Of a stretch of DNA of 39,471 bases, positions 5,552 through 38,992 are shown piece by piece; the first letter of the stretch is position 1, and every line of letters starts with the position of its first letter. A program made the translations under genes and the position numbers. The notes beneath the pieces were generated by a model. The model was not told where the DNA came from and made no database searches. It saw only the letters and a program-made list of their open reading frames with translations. This DNA is from Escherichia phage vB_EcoM_SHAK9454, in sequence record OR594184; one strand, given 5' to 3'.

Positions 5552-8233
5552 ATGAGCGTCATCTCTATTGACAAACACGACTTCTCTGATGTGTCGAACG
5601 CCATTGAGCCGTTTAACCTGCTGGCTGACCACTACGGGCAAGACCTTGCAGTCAAACAGCTTCAGCTTGAGCATGAGGCATACACTGAAGGCGAGCGACG
5701 TTTCATCAAGAACCTTGAGCGGCAGACTGAGCGCGGGGAACTGGCAGACAATCAGGTCGCCAAGCCTTTGATGCAGACTCTGGTCCCTAAGATTGCGCAA
5801 GCCGTCAGGGAGTGGCACGAAGGCCAAGACGGGAAGCTGTCAACCTCTCGTCCGAGTGTAGCGTTCACCATGTTGAGCACTGAAGAGAAGGCCGTAAAGG
5901 AACGATCTCTGCGCATCTCCTGTGAGTCTGCTGCGGTTATCGTACTGAAGGTCATACTCTCCAAGCTGGTCAAGCCTGAAGGGATCCCGATTACACCTAT
6001 GGCCTCAGCGATAGGTCGCACACTTGAGGACGAAATCCGCTTCGGTCGCATCCGTGACAAAGAGAAAGAGCACTTCAAGAAGGCGATAGCTGATAACCTG
6101 AATAAGCGGGCCGGGGCGTCATATAAGAAAGCCTACATGCAAGCGGTCGAGGCGTCCATGCTGGAGCAAGGCCAACTGGAAGATGCGTGGGGGACTTGGA
6201 GTCCTACAGAGGCCGTCCACGTTGGCATCAAGATGCTCGAGATTGTCATCCAGTCAACACAACTGGTCGAGCTTAAGCGGTACGGTGCTGGTAATGCAGC
6301 GGCTGACGTAGAGATGGTCCACCTGTCAGACTTCTGGGTCAAGAAGATGGCACAACGAGGATTCAGCCTTGCGGGTATCGCCCCAGTCTACCAGCCTTGC
6401 GTCGTCCCACCTAAGCCGTGGACTGGTGTCGTAGGTGGTGGGTACTGGGCCAAAGGTCGCAGACCGTTACCATTGATTCGCTTAGGGTCTAAGTCTGCGG
6501 TAGCACGTTATGAAGACGTATACATGCCTGAAGTCTATGACGCTGTGAATATCATCCAGAATACACCTTGGAAAGTGAACAAGAAGGTATTGGACGTGGT
6601 GAACATGGTCGAGAAGCTGAACAACACGCCTATTGATGACATCCCTCAGATGGAACCGCTGAAGCCTGAGGACTATGCTGGTGAAACCGAGGAGGAACTC
6701 AAGGCATGGAAGAAGGCTGCTGCTGGTATCTATCGCCGCGAGAAGGCCAGACAGTCACGCAGATTATCGCTGAACTTTATCGTTAACCAAGCAAACAAGT
6801 TCTCTCAGTTCAAGGCCATCTGGTTCCCGTACAACATGGATTGGCGAGGTCGTGTCTACGCTGTGCCGATGTTCAACCCTCAGGGTAACGACATGCAAAA
6901 GGGTCTTCTGACTCTGGCAGTCGGTAAGCCTATTGGTGCTGATGGTTTCAAATGGCTGAAGGTTCACGGTGCAAACTGCGCGGGTGTCGATAAAGTCACC
7001 TTCGAGGAGCGTATCAAGTGGGTGGAAGATAACCACGACAACATCATGGCTGCTGCCAAGGCACCGATGGATAGCATTGAGTGGTGGGGCAAGTTAGACT
7101 CTCCGTTCTGCTTCCTAGCGTTCTGCTTCGAGTATGCTGGCGTAATGCACCACGGCTTGTCTTACTCCTGCTCGCTGCCGATAGCGTTCGATGGGTCCTG
7201 CTCTGGGATTCAGCACTTCAGCGCTATGCTTCGTGACCACATCGGTGGACATGCAGTAAACCTGACGCCATCCGGTAAGGTCCAAGACATCTACCGCATT
7301 GTGTCTGACCGCATTGAGGAGCAGCTTAAAGTACTGCTGATTAACGGCACTGACAACGAGATGGTCACTCACGAGGATAAGAAAACTGGTGAGATTACCG
7401 AACGTATCAAGCTGGGGACACGAGAGCTGGCCCGTCAGTGGCTGACATACGGTATGTCACGCAAGGTCACTAAGCGTTCAGTCATGACTCTGGCATACGG
7501 GTCGAAAGAGTACGGCTTCGCAGACCAAGTTTACGAGGACATCGTGATGCCAGCGATTGACTCAGGGTCTGGCGCTATGTTCACTGAACCAAGCCAAGCG
7601 TCTCGCTTCATGGCAAAGATGATTTGGGAAGCTGTGAGTGTGACAGTAGTTGCTGCGGTTGACGCGATGAAGTGGCTTCAAGGTGCTGCCAAGCTGCTGG
7701 CTGCTGAAGTGAAGGACAAGAAGACTGGAGAAATCCTGAAGCCTTGCCTTCCGGTACACTGGGTCACACCTGATGGTTTCCCTGTCTGGCAGGAATACCG
7801 CAAGAAGGACACCACTCGTCTGAACCTGATGTTCTTAGGGTCATTCAACCTTCAGCCTACCGTCAACAAAGGCACGAAGAAAGAGCTGGACAAGCACAAG
7901 CAGGAGTCAGGCATTAGCCCGAACTTCGTCCACTCACAAGATGGTAGCCACCTCCGCAAGACTGTAGTCCACACTCACCGAAAGTATGGCGTGATGTCAT
8001 TCGCAGTGATTCACGATAGCTTCGGGACCATCCCGGCTGACGCTGAGTATCTGTTCCGTGGAGTCCGTGAGACGATGGTAGAGACTTACCGCGATAACGA
8101 TGTGCTGCTTGACTTCTACGAGCAGTTTGAATACCAGCTTCACGAGAGCCAGCGCGACAAGTTGCCTGAGCTTCCGAAGAAAGGTAAACTGAATATCGAA
8201 GACATCTTGTCTTCAGACTTTGCATTCGCTTAA
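5552..8233 (+). CDS. Single-subunit DNA-dependent RNA polymerase (T7 gene 1-like)
   Basis: 893 aa; DGSCSGIQHFSAMLRD (motif A), HDSFGT (motif C), C-terminal DFAFA, specificity-loop region TRLNLMFLGSFNLQP. Confidence 0.98.
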   Translation: MSVISIDKHDFSDVSNAIEPFNLLADHYGQDLAVKQLQLEHEAYTEGERRFIKNLERQTERGELADNQVAKPLMQTLVPKIAQAVREWHEGQDGKLSTSRPSVAFTMLSTEEKAVKERSLRISCESAAVIVLKVILSKLVKPEGIPITPMASAIGRTLEDEIRFGRIRDKEKEHFKKAIADNLNKRAGASYKKAYMQAVEASMLEQGQLEDAWGTWSPTEAVHVGIKMLEIVIQSTQLVELKRYGAGNAAADVEMVHLSDFWVKKMAQRGFSLAGIAPVYQPCVVPPKPWTGVVGGGYWAKGRRPLPLIRLGSKSAVARYEDVYMPEVYDAVNIIQNTPWKVNKKVLDVVNMVEKLNNTPIDDIPQMEPLKPEDYAGETEEELKAWKKAAAGIYRREKARQSRRLSLNFIVNQANKFSQFKAIWFPYNMDWRGRVYAVPMFNPQGNDMQKGLLTLAVGKPIGADGFKWLKVHGANCAGVDKVTFEERIKWVEDNHDNIMAAAKAPMDSIEWWGKLDSPFCFLAFCFEYAGVMHHGLSYSCSLPIAFDGSCSGIQHFSAMLRDHIGGHAVNLTPSGKVQDIYRIVSDRIEEQLKVLLINGTDNEMVTHEDKKTGEITERIKLGTRELARQWLTYGMSRKVTKRSVMTLAYGSKEYGFADQVYEDIVMPAIDSGSGAMFTEPSQASRFMAKMIWEAVSVTVVAAVDAMKWLQGAAKLLAAEVKDKKTGEILKPCLPVHWVTPDGFPVWQEYRKKDTTRLNLMFLGSFNLQPTVNKGTKKELDKHKQESGISPNFVHSQDGSHLRKTVVHTHRKYGVMSFAVIHDSFGTIPADAEYLFRGVRETMVETYRDNDVLLDFYEQFEYQLHESQRDKLPELPKKGKLNIEDILSSDFAFA

Positions 8234-8780: not shown

Positions 8781-8803
8781 CCTAAACTATCACTATAGGA
8801 TTA
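8781..8803 (+). promoter_or_regulatory. Phage RNAP promoter (phi1.1-like)
   Basis: CCTAAACTATCACTATAGGATTAG, +1 G at 8798. Confidence 0.8.
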
Positions 8804-8846
8804 GACTCAAGGTCATGACTCAAAGTCGTGGCCTTCATGATTAACC
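8801..8846 (+). promoter_or_regulatory. RNase III-like hairpin (late family, R1.1-like position)
   Basis: TAGACTCAAGGTCAT ... GTGGCCTTCATGATTAAC; 8-bp stem AAGGTCAT/GTGGCCTT with G-U pairs; same motif at 16014 and 38895. Confidence 0.5.
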
Positions 8847-8873
8847 CTAACTCATTCAATCAGGAGCTACACC

Positions 8874-9319: not shown

Positions 9320-10363
9320 ATGACAACTATTAAAACCAACCCGCACCGCGCTGTAGATTACTCTGAGTCAGGCGTTAAGAAAGCACTGGAAGCAGCCGGG
9401 TCGCTGGAAGCTGAAGTGAAATATGACGGTGTGCGGTTGAATATTCCGGTCTTCCCTGATGGGCGAACTGAATGGTTAAGCCGTGAGTCAAAGACGCTTC
9501 CGGCCTTAGACCATTTGTCAACAGTTGGTCAGGACATCGGAGCGTGCCGTGCGTCCGACTGGCGATGGTTCCTGAAGCAAGCAGGACATGAGGTATCTGG
9601 CCTGATGATTGATGGCGAGGTAATGGTCAAGGGTGCAGACTTCAACACGTCCTCAGGTCTTATCCGAACGAAGTGGACCAAGAAGACCAACGTTGATTGG
9701 CACACAGACCCGATGGCCCCAGCTAAAGTACCATTCTGTCTGGACCAGAAGTTCATCCAAGTGGTCGTCTACGGGGTCATCGACCTCAACGTCATCCTTG
9801 ACCCGAAAGCCGAAGGTCCTATCCATAGCGTCACTCGCCTGAAGGCCGAAGCTATCGTACCTCTCCTCCAGAAATACTTCCCGGAAATCGACTGGGTTCT
9901 GTCTGAGTCACACACGGTCTATGACCTTGAGTCGCTCAACTCCCTGTACGAACAGAAGCGTCTGGAAGGACATGAGGGTCTGGTAGTAAAGGACCCACTG
10001 GGTAAATATAAGCGCGGCAAGAAGTCAGGCATGTGGAAGATGAAGCCTGAGGAGACCATCGACGGGACCGTGTGTGGCCTCGTGTGGGGGACTCCGGGTA
10101 AGGCCAACGAAGGTAAGGTGATTGGCTTCGAGGTGCTGCTTGAGGATGGCATGGTGGTTAACGCCTGTGGTCTGTCTGAAGAACAGAAGGACGAGTTTAC
10201 GGAAGCCTGTAACACTGATACATATATTCTCGGTGGAATCAATCCGTACGAAGGATGGCAGTGTGAAGTACTCTTCATGGAGCGGTTCCCAGATGGATCC
10301 CTTCGTCACCCTAGCTTCAAGTGCTGGCGTGGAACGGAAGATAACCCAACCGTTAAGAGTTAA
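9320..10363 (+). CDS. ATP-dependent DNA ligase (T7 gene 1.3-like)
   Basis: 347 aa; adenylation motif KYDGVR; position after gene 1.2. Confidence 0.92.
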   Translation: MTTIKTNPHRAVDYSESGVKKALEAAGSLEAEVKYDGVRLNIPVFPDGRTEWLSRESKTLPALDHLSTVGQDIGACRASDWRWFLKQAGHEVSGLMIDGEVMVKGADFNTSSGLIRTKWTKKTNVDWHTDPMAPAKVPFCLDQKFIQVVVYGVIDLNVILDPKAEGPIHSVTRLKAEAIVPLLQKYFPEIDWVLSESHTVYDLESLNSLYEQKRLEGHEGLVVKDPLGKYKRGKKSGMWKMKPEETIDGTVCGLVWGTPGKANEGKVIGFEVLLEDGMVVNACGLSEEQKDEFTEACNTDTYILGGINPYEGWQCEVLFMERFPDGSLRHPSFKCWRGTEDNPTVKS

Positions 10364-10373
10364 CTAAACGTCA

Positions 10374-10411
10374 ACCCAGTGGTCTTCGGACTGCTGGGTT
10401 TCTTTGCTTTG
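10374..10411 (+). terminator. Early transcription terminator (TE-like), intrinsic
   Basis: Hairpin ACCCAGTGG-tcttcgga-CTGCTGGGTT followed by TTTCTTTGCTTTG, directly after the ligase gene as in T7. Confidence 0.6.
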
Positions 10412-10446
10412 TGCTAGCAAGCTATCGTCTGGGCCACCAGTTAGAC

Positions 10447-10469
10447 CCTAAGCTATCACTATAGGACAA
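10447..10469 (+). promoter_or_regulatory. Phage RNAP promoter
   Basis: CCTAAGCTATCACTATAGGACAAC, +1 G at 10464. Confidence 0.75.
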
Positions 10470-10495
10470 CCATAACTCGACATAAGGAGGCCGAC

Positions 10496-10750
10496 ATGTT
10501 TAAGAACTTAATGTTCAATCGTTATACCAGTACATTCCACCTGTCTCACAACCCATTAGCTTGCATTAAGCGCAACGAGAAGATGGGATACTTCGGGAAG
10601 GCCGTTAAGCTGTCACCTACAGTCTATGCTCTGATTACTCCGGGAAAAGCTGAAGAGGCTCGAAAGAAGCAGGAAACAAGTGTGCCCGTGGTCTACACTA
10701 AGTGGCCTCGCTTTCGTCTGTTCGTTGAGTTCGTGAAGGAGGTGTTCTGA
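10496..10750 (+). CDS. Hypothetical protein (84 aa), class II region
   Basis: TAAGGAGG then ATG 10496; no recognised motif. Confidence 0.6.
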   Translation: MFKNLMFNRYTSTFHLSHNPLACIKRNEKMGYFGKAVKLSPTVYALITPGKAEEARKKQETSVPVVYTKWPRFRLFVEFVKEVF

Positions 10751-10820
10751 TGGGATGTATAGCTTGCTTAGAGAAGGATGACCGTTATCCACACACGCCT
10801 GTAATAAAGGAGTTAACAAT

Positions 10821-11294
10821 ATGAACGCACTTGAACAAGAGATTATCATTAAGTTGGTAGATAATAACGAAGGTCGCCCAGATGATTTGAATGGCTGCAG
10901 TATTTTCTGCCATACTGTCCCTTGCTTCCTCTGCCCTGTAAATATCAATGAAAAGATAACCTTAGGTGAAATCCGAGCGATGGACATACGTAAGCCTAAA
11001 CTGGAGAAACCAGAGGTAACTCCTACAGATGACCAACCTTCAACTGAGTCAATCGACGCTGTCCGCAAGCCGTCCCACTATCAGGTATTTGACGGAGTGG
11101 AGTCCATTGAGATTATCGCTCGGTCCATGACTGTCAGCGAGTTCCGTGGGTTCTGCATGGGTAACGTCCTGAAGTATCGACTCCGAGCTGGTAAGAAGTC
11201 AGAGCTGGCGACTATGGAGAAGGACCTGAACAAAGCAGCCTTCTATCAGGAGCTGTTCGACCTACATAAAGGTAAGTGCTATGCTTCCGAGTGA
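10821..11294 (+). CDS. T7 gene 1.7-like protein (nucleotide kinase family), apparently lacking the usual N-terminal segment
   Basis: EIIIKLVDNNEGRPDDLNGC...RAGKKSELA resembles recalled T7 gp1.7; AAGGAG RBS; frame is closed 5 codons upstream of the ATG. Confidence 0.6.
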   Translation: MNALEQEIIIKLVDNNEGRPDDLNGCSIFCHTVPCFLCPVNINEKITLGEIRAMDIRKPKLEKPEVTPTDDQPSTESIDAVRKPSHYQVFDGVESIEIIARSMTVSEFRGFCMGNVLKYRLRAGKKSELATMEKDLNKAAFYQELFDLHKGKCYASE

Positions 11295-11372: not shown

Positions 11373-11531
11373 ATGACTGACGTAGAGAAGAAATACATCG
11401 TGGAACTTGAGGGACGTACCCAGTCCTTCGAGGTTCCGTTGTACGCAAAGTCTCTTGAAGAGGCTACCCTGAAGTCCCAAGAGTATGAGGACGCTGGGTT
11501 TGTGGTCGGACGGATTCGCCCTGAGACCTAA
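11373..11531 (+). CDS. Host RNA polymerase inhibitor (T7 gene 2-like), 52 aa
   Basis: GGAAGGAG then ATG 11373; [14 protein letters not shown]...[10 protein letters not shown] matches recalled T7 Gp2 SFEVPIYAETLDEA...AGFEVTRVRP; below the track cutoff. Confidence 0.75.
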
Positions 11532-11549
11532 ACTATCACTGTAGGACAG
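11527..11549 (+). promoter_or_regulatory. Phage RNAP promoter variant (phi2.5-like), A to G at -3
   Basis: CCTAAACTATCACTGTAGGACAGA. Confidence 0.6.
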
Positions 11550-11589: not shown

Positions 11590-12288
11590 ATGGCTAAAGA
11601 GCAACTGAAGACTTTCACCACTCCGGTAGCTGGTATCGTTGAGCCTTACGCATGGCTGAACAAAGCAGACACCAAGTTTAACGAGCGTGGTGAGCATAAG
11701 GTTAACCTGACATTCGACCTGAGCAACCATAAGGTCCGTAAGATGATTGATGTCTTACAGAAGATTCACGACGATGCGTATGCAAAAGCACTCGCAGACC
11801 ACGAGAAGAACCCACCTCAGGTTCAGCGTGGCAAGAAGCCTATTGAACCACGAGAAGGCGACATGCCGTGGATTGAGAATGGTGACGGTACTGTTACCCT
11901 TAAGTTTAAATGCTTTGCGTCTTACCTGAAAGACGGCAAGTCCGAGCCTATCGTATTACGGTTCTACGACACCGATGCTAAACTCATCCGTGACGTCCCG
12001 AATATCTGCGCTGGGTCTAAGCTGAAGGTCAAGTTTAAAGTCCTGCCGTTCAAGTGGAACGCTGCGACTGGTGCAAGCGTTAAGCTTCAGCTTGAGTCCT
12101 GCCTTCTGGTAGAACTGAAGGAGTGGAAAGGCGATGGTGCTGGTGGCGATGGTGGCTGGGGTGATGATGAAGACCTTGGTACTGGCTACAAAGCGTCAAC
12201 CGTTGGTGACTTCGGTGACGATGACTTCGGTGACGATGGTTCCGAAGGTGGTGACGACTCCAACTCTGGTGGCGATTACGACTTCTAA
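11590..12288 (+). CDS. Single-stranded DNA-binding protein (T7 gene 2.5-like)
   Basis: 232 aa, same length as T7 gp2.5; acidic C-terminal tail ending DYDF; GKKP..EGDMP and VKLQLES blocks. Confidence 0.92.
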   Translation: MAKEQLKTFTTPVAGIVEPYAWLNKADTKFNERGEHKVNLTFDLSNHKVRKMIDVLQKIHDDAYAKALADHEKNPPQVQRGKKPIEPREGDMPWIENGDGTVTLKFKCFASYLKDGKSEPIVLRFYDTDAKLIRDVPNICAGSKLKVKFKVLPFKWNAATGASVKLQLESCLLVELKEWKGDGAGGDGGWGDDEDLGTGYKASTVGDFGDDDFGDDGSEGGDDSNSGGDYDF

Positions 12289-12734
12289 TGAAACTTAAAG
12301 AGAAACTGGAGGCTTACTCTGAGGTTTCTCCTAGTGGATGCTGGGAGTGGCAACTCTCCCGGTTTCCTGCTGGATATGGTCGAATATCAATAGGACGTCA
12401 GAAACAGGACTACGCTCACCGAGTTTCATACAGGGAGTACAAAGGTCCAATACCTGATGGATTGGTTGTTAGACATAAATGTGATAATCCCTGCTGCTGT
12501 AACCCTGAGCACCTTGAACTAGGTACGCAGAAGGACAACATGAGGGACTGCATGGAGCGAGGACGAAAGTCTAATCCTCCCGTATTCAAAGGAGAAGCTA
12601 ATCACAAGACTAAGCTGACCAAGGAAAACGTAGAGTTCATCTTAGAGTCTATGCTACCAGCTATAGAACTAGCCAAGATGTTTGGAGTCACACCAGCGGC
12701 TATAAACTGGAGGAGACAACATGGCTGGACGTAG
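12288..12734 (+). CDS. HNH homing endonuclease
   Basis: CWEW...GYGR...HRVSY...HKCDNPCCCNPEHLELGTQKDN motif; codon usage richer in ATA/AGA/AGG than neighbours. Confidence 0.8.
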   Translation: MKLKEKLEAYSEVSPSGCWEWQLSRFPAGYGRISIGRQKQDYAHRVSYREYKGPIPDGLVVRHKCDNPCCCNPEHLELGTQKDNMRDCMERGRKSNPPVFKGEANHKTKLTKENVEFILESMLPAIELAKMFGVTPAAINWRRQHGWT

Positions 12735-13173
12735 CATAAGCAGAGGGCATCAAGTAGGAGCCTACCGCTCTGGACTTGAAGCAAAGAACCAGGAGTGGCT
12801 TGAGAAGAATGGAGTTAAGGCTGATTACGAGGCTTATAAGATAGGCTACGTAGTCCCATCTAGCGATCATTTTTACACGCCGGACTTCGTTTTACCTAAC
12901 GGTATCATCGTGGAGACCAAAGGTATCTTCGATAGTGATGACCGCAAGAAGCACCTTCTGGTACGAGAACAGCACCCAGAGTTAGACATCCGGTTCGTGT
13001 TCTCAAGTTCCCGCTCCAAGTTATACAAAGGGTCTCCGACCACGTATGGCGCATGGTGCGAAAAGAACGGCTATAAGTATGCCGATAAGTTCATCCCGGT
13101 TGAGTGGCTGAGAGAGGCGACTGTACGTCTGCCCTCAGGTATACTCATCCCCAAGAAGAAAGGAGTTAAGTGA
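12721..13173 (+). CDS. Endonuclease I, Holliday junction resolvase (T7 gene 3-like)
   Basis: YTPDF.LPNGI.VETKG...DDRKKHLL.REQHPELDIR.VFSSSR.KLYKGSPT.YG matches recalled T7 gp3. Confidence 0.92.
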   Translation: MAGRSISRGHQVGAYRSGLEAKNQEWLEKNGVKADYEAYKIGYVVPSSDHFYTPDFVLPNGIIVETKGIFDSDDRKKHLLVREQHPELDIRFVFSSSRSKLYKGSPTTYGAWCEKNGYKYADKFIPVEWLREATVRLPSGILIPKKKGVK

Positions 13174-13625
13174 TGACTCGTAAAGCAATCATCGTTGACC
13201 TGATGGATGGTGATGCACATTCAGACAACTACAAGGCAGGACAGGAGGTCTTCGTTAAGTTCTACCATAAGTCACTCAACCCTAGTGATGGAGACCTGTG
13301 GCAGGTGTCGCATGATGGTGTCAAGTGGCTGGCCTCAATGTATGGTCGCCGCCTGAAGTTTATAGATGCTGGTGATAAACCTCAAGTCCTGCCAGCCTCA
13401 AGCGTCCCTCCTGTCACCGTTAAACGTGAAGTCCTGACCATCAACAAGATTGGTGTAGGCCAGACGTTCATCGTCCATGGAAAGCCTGAAGAAGTTTACG
13501 TGAAGATTAGCAACTCACACGTCTTCAACCATAAGCATCTCCAGATGCACACCACGGACGCACAACGCTTCACCCAGCACCTGAATCTGGTGGTCGTAGA
13601 ATTGGTGGTGTACAATGGTAAGTAA
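13173..13625 (+). CDS. Hypothetical protein (150 aa) inserted between endonuclease I and lysozyme
   Basis: AGGAG 13161-13165 then ATG 13173 overlapping the endonuclease I stop (TGATG); no recognised motif. Confidence 0.65.
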   Translation: MTRKAIIVDLMDGDAHSDNYKAGQEVFVKFYHKSLNPSDGDLWQVSHDGVKWLASMYGRRLKFIDAGDKPQVLPASSVPPVTVKREVLTINKIGVGQTFIVHGKPEEVYVKISNSHVFNHKHLQMHTTDAQRFTQHLNLVVVELVVYNGK

Positions 13626-14073
13626 GGTACAGTTCAATCCACGGTCCCGGACCGACGCTATCTTCGTTCACTGTTCGGCTACCAAGCCAGAGATGGACAT
13701 CGGGGTAGAGACCATCCGTATGTGGCACAAGCAGCAAGGCTGGCTGGACGTAGGCTACCACTTTATCATCAAGCGCGATGGTACTGTGGAAGAGGGACGC
13801 CCGGTCAATGTCGTAGGGTCACACGTTAAGGACTGGAACTCACGGTCTGTAGGCGTCTGCCTTGTAGGTGGAATTGACGCTAAGGGCAAGTTTGAAGCTA
13901 ACTTCACTCCGGCCCAGATGAACTCCCTGCGCAACAAGCTGGCTGACCTGAAGGTCATGTATCCTCAGGCAGAAATCAAAGCACATCATGACGTAGCACC
14001 AAAGGCGTGTCCAAGTTTCGACTTGCAACGCTGGCTGTCTACCAATGAACTGGTCACTTCCGACCGAGGCTAA
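13615..14073 (+). CDS. Lysozyme, N-acetylmuramoyl-L-alanine amidase (T7 gene 3.5-like)
   Basis: TDAIFVHCSATKP...GWLDVGYHFIIKRDGTVE...HH.VAPKACPSFDL.RW...ELVTSDRG, near-identical blocks to recalled T7 lysozyme. Confidence 0.95.
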   Translation: MVSKVQFNPRSRTDAIFVHCSATKPEMDIGVETIRMWHKQQGWLDVGYHFIIKRDGTVEEGRPVNVVGSHVKDWNSRSVGVCLVGGIDAKGKFEANFTPAQMNSLRNKLADLKVMYPQAEIKAHHDVAPKACPSFDLQRWLSTNELVTSDRG

Positions 14074-38894: not shown

Positions 38895-38940
38895 TTAGAC
38901 TCAAGGTCATTACTGTATGTAGTGGCCTTTATGGTTAACA
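38895..38940 (+). promoter_or_regulatory. RNase III-like hairpin (late family, R18.5-like position)
   Basis: TAGACTCAAGGTCAT ... GTGGCCTTTATGGTTAAC. Confidence 0.5.
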
Positions 38941-38992
38941 CTAACTAGTGGAGGAGACTCTACGTGCAATCTGATAAACCGGGAGGGCAACT

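Follow-up and report, generated by a model that had tools for sequence, protein, structure and literature searches.

In phage T7 the genes 3 (10257-10706) and 3.5 (10706-11161), coding for endonuclease I and the lysozyme, abut. Endonuclease I is a Holliday-junction resolvase and a host-DNA-degrading nuclease, and it is toxic when cloned. In phage K1F the slot between these genes holds a further gene named gp3.2, as it is in Dev2 and EcoDS1; in CR8/CR44b it is called 3.01. K1F, LM33_P1 and their relatives in the genus Kayfunavirus are under development as therapeutics against E. coli K1, ST131 and Enterobacter, and little is understood of their host range once they have adsorbed. Phage tail-fibre and receptor-binding proteins can combine a constant anchor with an exchangeable tip.

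The stretch of DNA analysed here, referred to as the window, has a length of 39,471 nt and is the complete, circularly permuted, K1F-like genome of Escherichia phage vB_EcoM_SHAK9454 (OR594184), genus Kayfunavirus. Its gene at 13173-13625 shares with the K1F gp3.2 family the position between genes 3 and 3.5, the overlaps at start and stop, the C-terminal domain and an invariant motif, but the first 66 amino acids belong to a rarer 'type A' that is unrelated to the 'type B' N-terminal module of K1F. Full-length homologues of type A are gp17 of phage phiYIO1-1 (XAI67773.1, with 93 % identity the closest protein) and proteins of Enterobacter cloacae Kayfunavirus phages (86 % identity, e.g., 03_vB_Eclo_IJM). 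The backbones of these phages differ from that of SHAK9454, and their genes are annotated just as 'hypothetical protein'.

The gp3.2 gene and its family

A first-pass annotation had described an uncharacterised, well-formed and translationally coupled ORF with genome-typical composition and no recognisable motif between endonuclease I and lysozyme, and had regarded it as an inserted accessory gene. The following features of the locus were identified, the Shine-Dalgarno sequence by direct reading:

11525-11547, forward strand: phage RNA polymerase promoter, equivalent of phi2.5, one of 11 copies of the CTAAACTATCACTATAGG family
12721-13173, forward strand: endonuclease I, gene 3 (PF05367, E 7e-76)
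13160-13165, forward strand: strong Shine-Dalgarno sequence AAGGAG, 7 nt 5' of the gp3.2 ATG
13173-13625, forward strand: gp3.2-family ORF, 150 aa, TAA stop (PHROG 16385/15211)
13173-13370, forward strand: N-terminal module, aa 1-66, cassette type A, predicted five-strand SH3-like barrel
13371-13418, forward strand: Pro/Ser-rich linker, aa 67-82 (AGDKPQVLPASSVPPV), low pLDDT, conserved across the N-terminal types
13419-13622, forward strand: constant C-terminal domain, aa 83-150, which defines the family
13497-13571, forward strand: invariant motif Y109-x3-S113 N114 S115 H116-x-F118 N119-x4-Q124 M125 H126-x-T128-x3-R132 F133
13615-13625, forward strand: overlap of 11 nt between the 3' end of gp3.2 and the start of gene 3.5
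13615-14073, forward strand: N-acetylmuramoyl-L-alanine amidase, the T7 lysozyme homologue, gene 3.5 (PF01510, Amidase_2; PHROG 822), 3' neighbour

The ORF listing gave 13170-13625 from a GTG codon; the in-frame ATG at 13173 yields 150 amino acids, a protein of 17 kDa with no cysteine at any position. The ATG shares bases with the TGA of endonuclease I in the form TGATG, and the stop is the TAA at 13623-13625. The ATG of the amidase at 13615 lies within the ORF, and its Shine-Dalgarno-like GGTGGTG sits in the final gp3.2 codons. The GC content was 0.490 in comparison to 0.498 for the genome, corresponding to the 37th percentile of 453-nt windows. The well-formed ORF, the translational coupling, the typical composition, the position between the two enzymes and the abutting genes of T7 were thus all described correctly. 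No phage promoter of the CTAAACTATCACTATAGG family is present between 11548 and 14066; the copy at 11525 is the closest upstream of gp3.2 and therefore probably drives a unit of the genes 2.5, HNH, 3, 3.2 and 3.5. Judged from the promoter positions, gp3.2 is probably a class II product of the DNA-metabolism period, together with endonuclease I and the amidase. Matches to sigma-70 promoters and terminators in the ORF were at chance level, and an Rfam search of the ORF gave no signal above chance.

The suggestion of an inserted accessory gene stood only in part. T7 has no homologue: a six-frame hmmsearch of its genome with profiles of the C-terminal domain and the type A module had a best E of 1.2. 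However, the gene is no orphan insertion, as seen from the 93 % identical GenBank relative and the matches to phrog_16385 (E 3.3e-53 over aa 48-150) and phrog_15211 (E 1.6e-38 over aa 81-150), two families that carry no assigned function. K1F gp3.2 (YP_424930.1, NC_007636) was 82 % identical over aa 52-150 in tblastn. By these matches the ORF is a homologue of the already annotated K1F gp3.2 family and not a new kind of gene. Homologues were found by tblastn in 219 of 50,697 GenBank phage records, and 247 phage records matched the region around gp3.2 at the nucleotide level, so that the C-terminal domain nearly has the status of a core gene of the genus. The term accessory gene consequently suits the exchangeable N-terminal cassette of about 66 amino acids, but not the C-terminal domain.

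A search of 5.8 billion proteins yielded 255 homologous clusters, for which many of the listed members were located on contigs of about 39-41 kb; none carried a Pfam domain. An exhaustive hmmsearch of 1.84 billion representatives retrieved 15 clusters only, all of the gp3.2 family and on T7-like contigs of about 39 kb. Remote-homology search, one of the checks proposed by the first-pass annotation, added with a second profile a divergent subfamily in T7-like phages of Providencia, and no annotated relative was gained. The homologue directly abutted endonuclease I in 33 of 33 loci, including the distant Providencia type; its start coincided with the stop codon of endonuclease I or lay no more than a few bases from it. 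Elsewhere in the SHAK9454 genome a six-frame profile search detected no relative of either half of gp3.2. Pfam and NCBIfam gave no match to gp3.2 at E<=1-10, in line with the earlier statement of no recognisable motif; Pfam gave no match of any kind to the C-terminal domains at E<=10, the PDB sequence search none with the single protein or the C-domain profile, and PADLOC none with the SHAK9454 protein at E<=1. The searches found no homologue of known function. All homologues are uncharacterised, which bears out the unknown function, and homology to a T7-group protein of trivial function, looked for as a possible refutation, did not appear among them. A published function of gp3.2 was not found in the searchable literature, either by PHROG ids or by accession; the name occurs there in one annotation table only, in which the same overlap of gp3.2 and amidase is tabulated for phage SH5 (PMC4925675). 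A search for the gp3.2 motif in the supplementary files of two accessory-gene screens gave no match, hence no counter-defence phenotype is recorded for it there.

Among 29 genomes the C-terminal domain had a pN/pS of 0.23 at a pS of 0.49, and the neighbours had pN/pS values of 0.14 (endonuclease I) and 0.15 (amidase). The 255 homologous clusters and a pN/pS similar to that of the flanking genes indicate more than a chance ORF: gp3.2 is a real gene under selection, and its C-terminal domain is under purifying selection. With a normal synonymous divergence this conservation acts at the protein level and not at the nucleotide level. A hidden nucleic-acid element was rejected as cause of the conservation, since synonymous sites diverge normally and promoter, terminator and Rfam searches gave no signal.

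Constant C-terminal domain and exchangeable N-terminal cassettes

The C-terminal domain is basic (pI 9.5) and rich in histidine, and 118 proteins had a mean pairwise identity of 94 %. In alignment A3, which covers both subfamilies, 14 columns were invariant, and all of these residues are present in the SHAK9454 protein, where the motif reads Y-x3-SNSH-x-FN-x4-QMHTT-x3-RF. The Providencia-type subfamily is only 27-38 % identical overall and has kept the motif residues. In roughly half of the family (about 120 records, e.g., Dev2, SH5 and the loci L013-L025) the C-terminal domain alone forms a protein of 74 amino acids, which suggests that it has a function of its own. The full-length structural model did not resolve this domain; a more diverse alignment brought the pLDDT to 78, with about 90 in the core, and gave a small barrel, tentatively SH3-like, with a short helix and then a terminal strand behind it. 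Foldseek against BFVD returned family members and many uncharacterised phage proteins of 70-90 amino acids, among them a protein of phage 172-1 with a TM score of 0.70-0.76. Two enzyme classes were considered for the domain and rejected: 2H phosphoesterases, for which only one HxT element is present and the predicted fold is wrong, and NlpC/P60 papain-like peptidases, whose Cys-His-His/Asn/Gln triad is lacking in a protein without cysteine.

In structure prediction, likewise among the checks proposed earlier, the type A module was confidently predicted as an SH3-like barrel of five strands with a structural match to SH3/KOW domains. To the small beta-barrels of this group (eukaryotic SH3, domain I of EF-P, the SH3-like domains of ribosomal L2/eS4, FeoA) gp3.2 has no sequence relationship, and the structural scores are at the level generic for small barrels, from which no ligand can be inferred. 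As a candidate relative, the anti-Thoeris sponge Tad2 (PDB 9eib) was dismissed, with neither a sequence match nor a specific structural match. The Pro/Ser-rich linker (PQVLPASSVPPV) is located directly N-terminal to the C-terminal domain.

At least six types of N-terminal module were distinguished, with no detectable profile-profile similarity to one another or to the C-terminal domain (hhalign probability <13 %). On this basis the idea that the cassettes descend from one another or from the C-terminal domain by divergence had no support; they may still share a fold, as a structure was modelled for type A alone. The SHAK9454 module clustered with 42 other type A proteins, and the type A pattern RKAIIVDL..GQEVFVKF..DGDLW.VSHDG..RLKFI can be aligned in its aa 1-66. 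In tblastn, type A turned up in 10 phage records, eight from Enterobacter phages and two from E. coli phages; 56 records, mostly of E. coli phages, had type B, and the types C, D and E were present in 2, 27 and 4 records, respectively. The association of cassette types with hosts is loose. All matches to N-terminal modules in the 50,697 phage genomes adjoined the endonuclease gene, thus the modules are private to the gp3.2 locus. Some metagenomic relatives carry two modules in tandem before the constant domain, B+A in P0107, A+D-like in P0034 and B+D-like in P0123. Two further proteins, P0125 and P0133, resemble in-frame deletion derivatives. For the type C cassette (P0121 aa 15-65) PADLOC proposed Cas6 (E 0.002, 15.6 bits), a match that was judged to be probably chance, because it occurred in just 2 of 16 near-identical members.

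The genome comparison revealed how the cassettes are exchanged. Over 14100-39000 the identity of SHAK9454 with HC13, 6925 and LM33_P1, all of them phages of E. coli, is about 95 %; LM33_P1 and HC12 carry a type B cassette. LM33_P1 and SHAK9454 share 98-100 % identity over 12900-13150 and 13450-14050, but only about 30 % over 13200-13350 within the N-terminal module, which indicates a clean replacement of the module between conserved arms. The linker holds the 3' recombination junction of the cassette, and from about 13400 on the nucleotide identity rises again even to relatives that carry another cassette. Unrelated N-terminal cassettes are exchanged by recombination between conserved flanks. 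Judged from these alignments, SHAK9454 has a rare type A cassette on an LM33_P1-like backbone of E. coli phages, and its closest backbone relatives carry other cassettes. In comparison to phiYIO1-1 the N-terminal module had a pS of 0.00 with five non-synonymous changes, whereas the C-terminal domain had a pS of 0.32; recombination therefore separates the two halves within type A too.

The N-terminal modules evolve faster than the C-terminal domain. For type B, pN was 0.25 in the module and 0.04 in the C-terminal domain, with a pN/pS of 0.42 and 0.12, respectively; for type A overall, pN/pS was 0.28 and 0.15. The closest type A pairs showed module values near or above 1, derived from very few substitutions, and the overall pN/pS of the modules (0.28-0.42) was below 1. 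Among the 43 type A proteins the variability was located in the predicted loops aa 8-24 and 33-41, with an entropy of 1.55 versus 0.95 in the strands (p=0.009). We take these as the counterparts of the loops on either side of the ligand groove in canonical SH3 domains.

Proposed function and alternatives

Our preferred reading is a tentative one: gp3.2 may be a non-enzymatic binder of two modules, a constant docking barrel and an exchangeable N-terminal module for a variable host factor. The C-terminal barrel (aa 83-150), in which polar and aromatic residues are invariant, would dock on a conserved partner, which could be nucleic acid or a part of the host or phage machinery that is likewise conserved. 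The N-terminal barrel (aa 1-66) would serve as specificity module and be replaced through homologous recombination, with the 3' end of gene 3 on one side and the linker or C-terminal domain on the other, and the loops would diversify within each cassette type. The swapping of unrelated cassettes together with the diversification of loops suggests that each cassette binds a different host factor that varies between strains or genera, most plausibly a factor of immunity or another factor of host takeover. In this way gp3.2 would tune the phage to particular hosts. We infer binding rather than catalysis, a host target and a role in counter-defence or host range from the architecture and the evolutionary pattern: a standalone selected C-terminal domain, unrelated, locus-private N-terminal modules that recombination exchanges, with occasional stacking and with diversified loops, a loose host bias, generic folds and no catalytic signature. 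A swappable N-terminal barrel on a near-invariant C-terminal barrel makes gp3.2 a plausible host-interaction factor. The overall pN/pS of the modules below 1 and the loose association of cassettes with hosts would speak against a binder; a small-molecule or catalytic site would also fit 14 invariant residues, many of them polar, within 68 amino acids, and the constant pairing with endonuclease I could instead reflect a role within the phage.

In a more specific version, which we regard as doubtful although arguable, gp3.2 would be an intracellular specificity factor armed with cassettes: its constant C-terminal barrel would be the effector or anchor, and its interchangeable and sometimes tandem N-terminal barrels, obtained through recombination at a single fixed locus, would each neutralise or recruit a different strain-specific host factor, e.g., an immune sensor. 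If true, gp3.2 would be an intracellular counterpart of the swapping of tail-fibre tips, and this one locus would be a determinant of the host range of Kayfunavirus after adsorption. The likeness to tail fibres is an analogy of design only: both combine a genus-conserved domain with unrelated modules recombined between conserved flanks. They share no homology, and unlike the fibre, gp3.2 is probably an intracellular class II product outside the virion and has its variable module at the N-terminus.

The main rival, a regulator internal to the phage, appears unlikely. Here the C-terminal domain would modulate a coupled neighbour, by tempering or targeting endonuclease I or by adjusting the circuit of amidase and RNA polymerase, and the N-terminal modules would be secondary. 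The constant position directly 3' of endonuclease I with overlapping start and stop in all 33 loci, the Providencia subfamily included, favours such a partner, as do the overlap with the amidase start, the common class II unit and a conservation comparable to that of the 3' two thirds of endonuclease I. Yet the same enzymes work without gp3.2 in T7 and in most of the other T7-like genera, and a conserved partner fails to explain N-terminal modules that are unrelated, rapidly exchanged or arranged in tandem. The coupling to gene 3.5 is moreover dispensable, since an HNH gene in phage STP-SP1 and two ORFs on a Providencia-type contig separate gp3.2 from the amidase. If gp3.2 did regulate endonuclease I, it would add a layer of control that is missing in T7.

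The invariant residues could also form a pocket (SNSH..FN..QMHTT..RF) of a small-molecule sponge or miniature enzyme that sequesters or modifies a signalling nucleotide, in the manner of Tad2, or binds a metal. We consider this improbable: structural matches to Tad2 and FeoA were no better than those to dozens of other SH3-like barrels, the C-terminal domains lacked any Pfam match at E<=10, and one HxT-like element in a chain without cysteine provides no site of the 2H phosphoesterase or NlpC/P60 type from one chain. The N-terminal cassettes would be left unexplained.

Very improbable is a helper of the adjacent amidase that binds the cell wall in the manner of SH3b domains. No Pfam family, SH3b included, matched at E<=1, the N-terminus on reading alone contains no obvious signal peptide or membrane segment, and gp3.2 is probably produced with the DNA-metabolism genes in class II. 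The T7-type amidase is not known to require a wall-binding domain when it acts in Gram-negative hosts. Hardly credible is a non-functional spacer ORF kept for the translational coupling of genes 3 and 3.5, or a conserved nucleic-acid element: gp3.2 overlaps both neighbours and contains the ribosome-binding site of the amidase, but the codon-level data contradict a spacer with a synonymous divergence as high as in the neighbours and suppressed non-synonymous change, no promoter, terminator or Rfam signal exceeded chance, and T7 couples the two genes directly.

An earlier description of the modular cassette architecture was not found in the searchable literature. As gp3.2 is already an annotated family of hypothetical proteins, the result counts as a lead, and neither as a discovery nor as a demonstrated mechanism. 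A near genus-wide gene with an exchanged N-terminal half and an almost invariant C-terminal half is a well-defined candidate for a post-adsorption determinant of host range, and cassettes of about 200 nt between conserved arms are easily swapped. Should they act in host-specific counter-defence, the six or more cassettes would be ready-made small binders against host targets.

Mobile genes and other features of the genome

An ORF for an HNH homing-type endonuclease (PF13392) is located at 12288-12734 between gene 2.5 and gene 3, in the slot of T7 gene 2.8, and overlaps the start of endonuclease I by 14 nt. The record of phage TM1 also annotates an HNH homing endonuclease here and matches SHAK9454 from the 3' end of the HNH gene onward. 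In the 5' third of endonuclease I (12750-12900) the identity to all 15 compared relatives was about 60 %, and in the 3' two thirds mostly 80-100 %. The neighbouring HNH gene may account for this 5' tract, as a trace of co-conversion or of homing immunity. In Salmonella phage STP-SP1 (locus L033, 2416-2865) a related HNH endonuclease gene has inserted between the gp3.2 homologue and the amidase, thus the interval between genes 3 and 3.5 is also a landing site for mobile endonucleases. On a Providencia-type Logan contig (ERR11042141_3778, locus L026) two ORFs of 117 and 79 amino acids occupy the same interval at 6466-7039; the ORF of 79 amino acids matches PHROG 1950/5965.

The 11 copies of the promoter-like sequence lie at 1824, 5458, 8779, 10440, 11525, 14067, 20156, 22995, 23982, 28765 and 36041, and have the consensus CTAAACTATCACTATAGG, with one degenerate copy at 14067 (ATCACCTTAGAGA). 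A direct repeat of 52 nt with 85 % identity (8801-8852 and 38895-38946, also 820-837) lies 3' of two promoter-like sites; its possible roles include those of a processing site and of an element associated with an origin. Between the large ORF at 1-1731 and the next ORFs an exact tandem duplication of 193 nt was observed (2424-2616 and 2617-2809). It is probably a direct terminal repeat of the T7 type that was kept twice in the circularly permuted assembly; in that case the physical ends of the genome would lie near 2616/2617.
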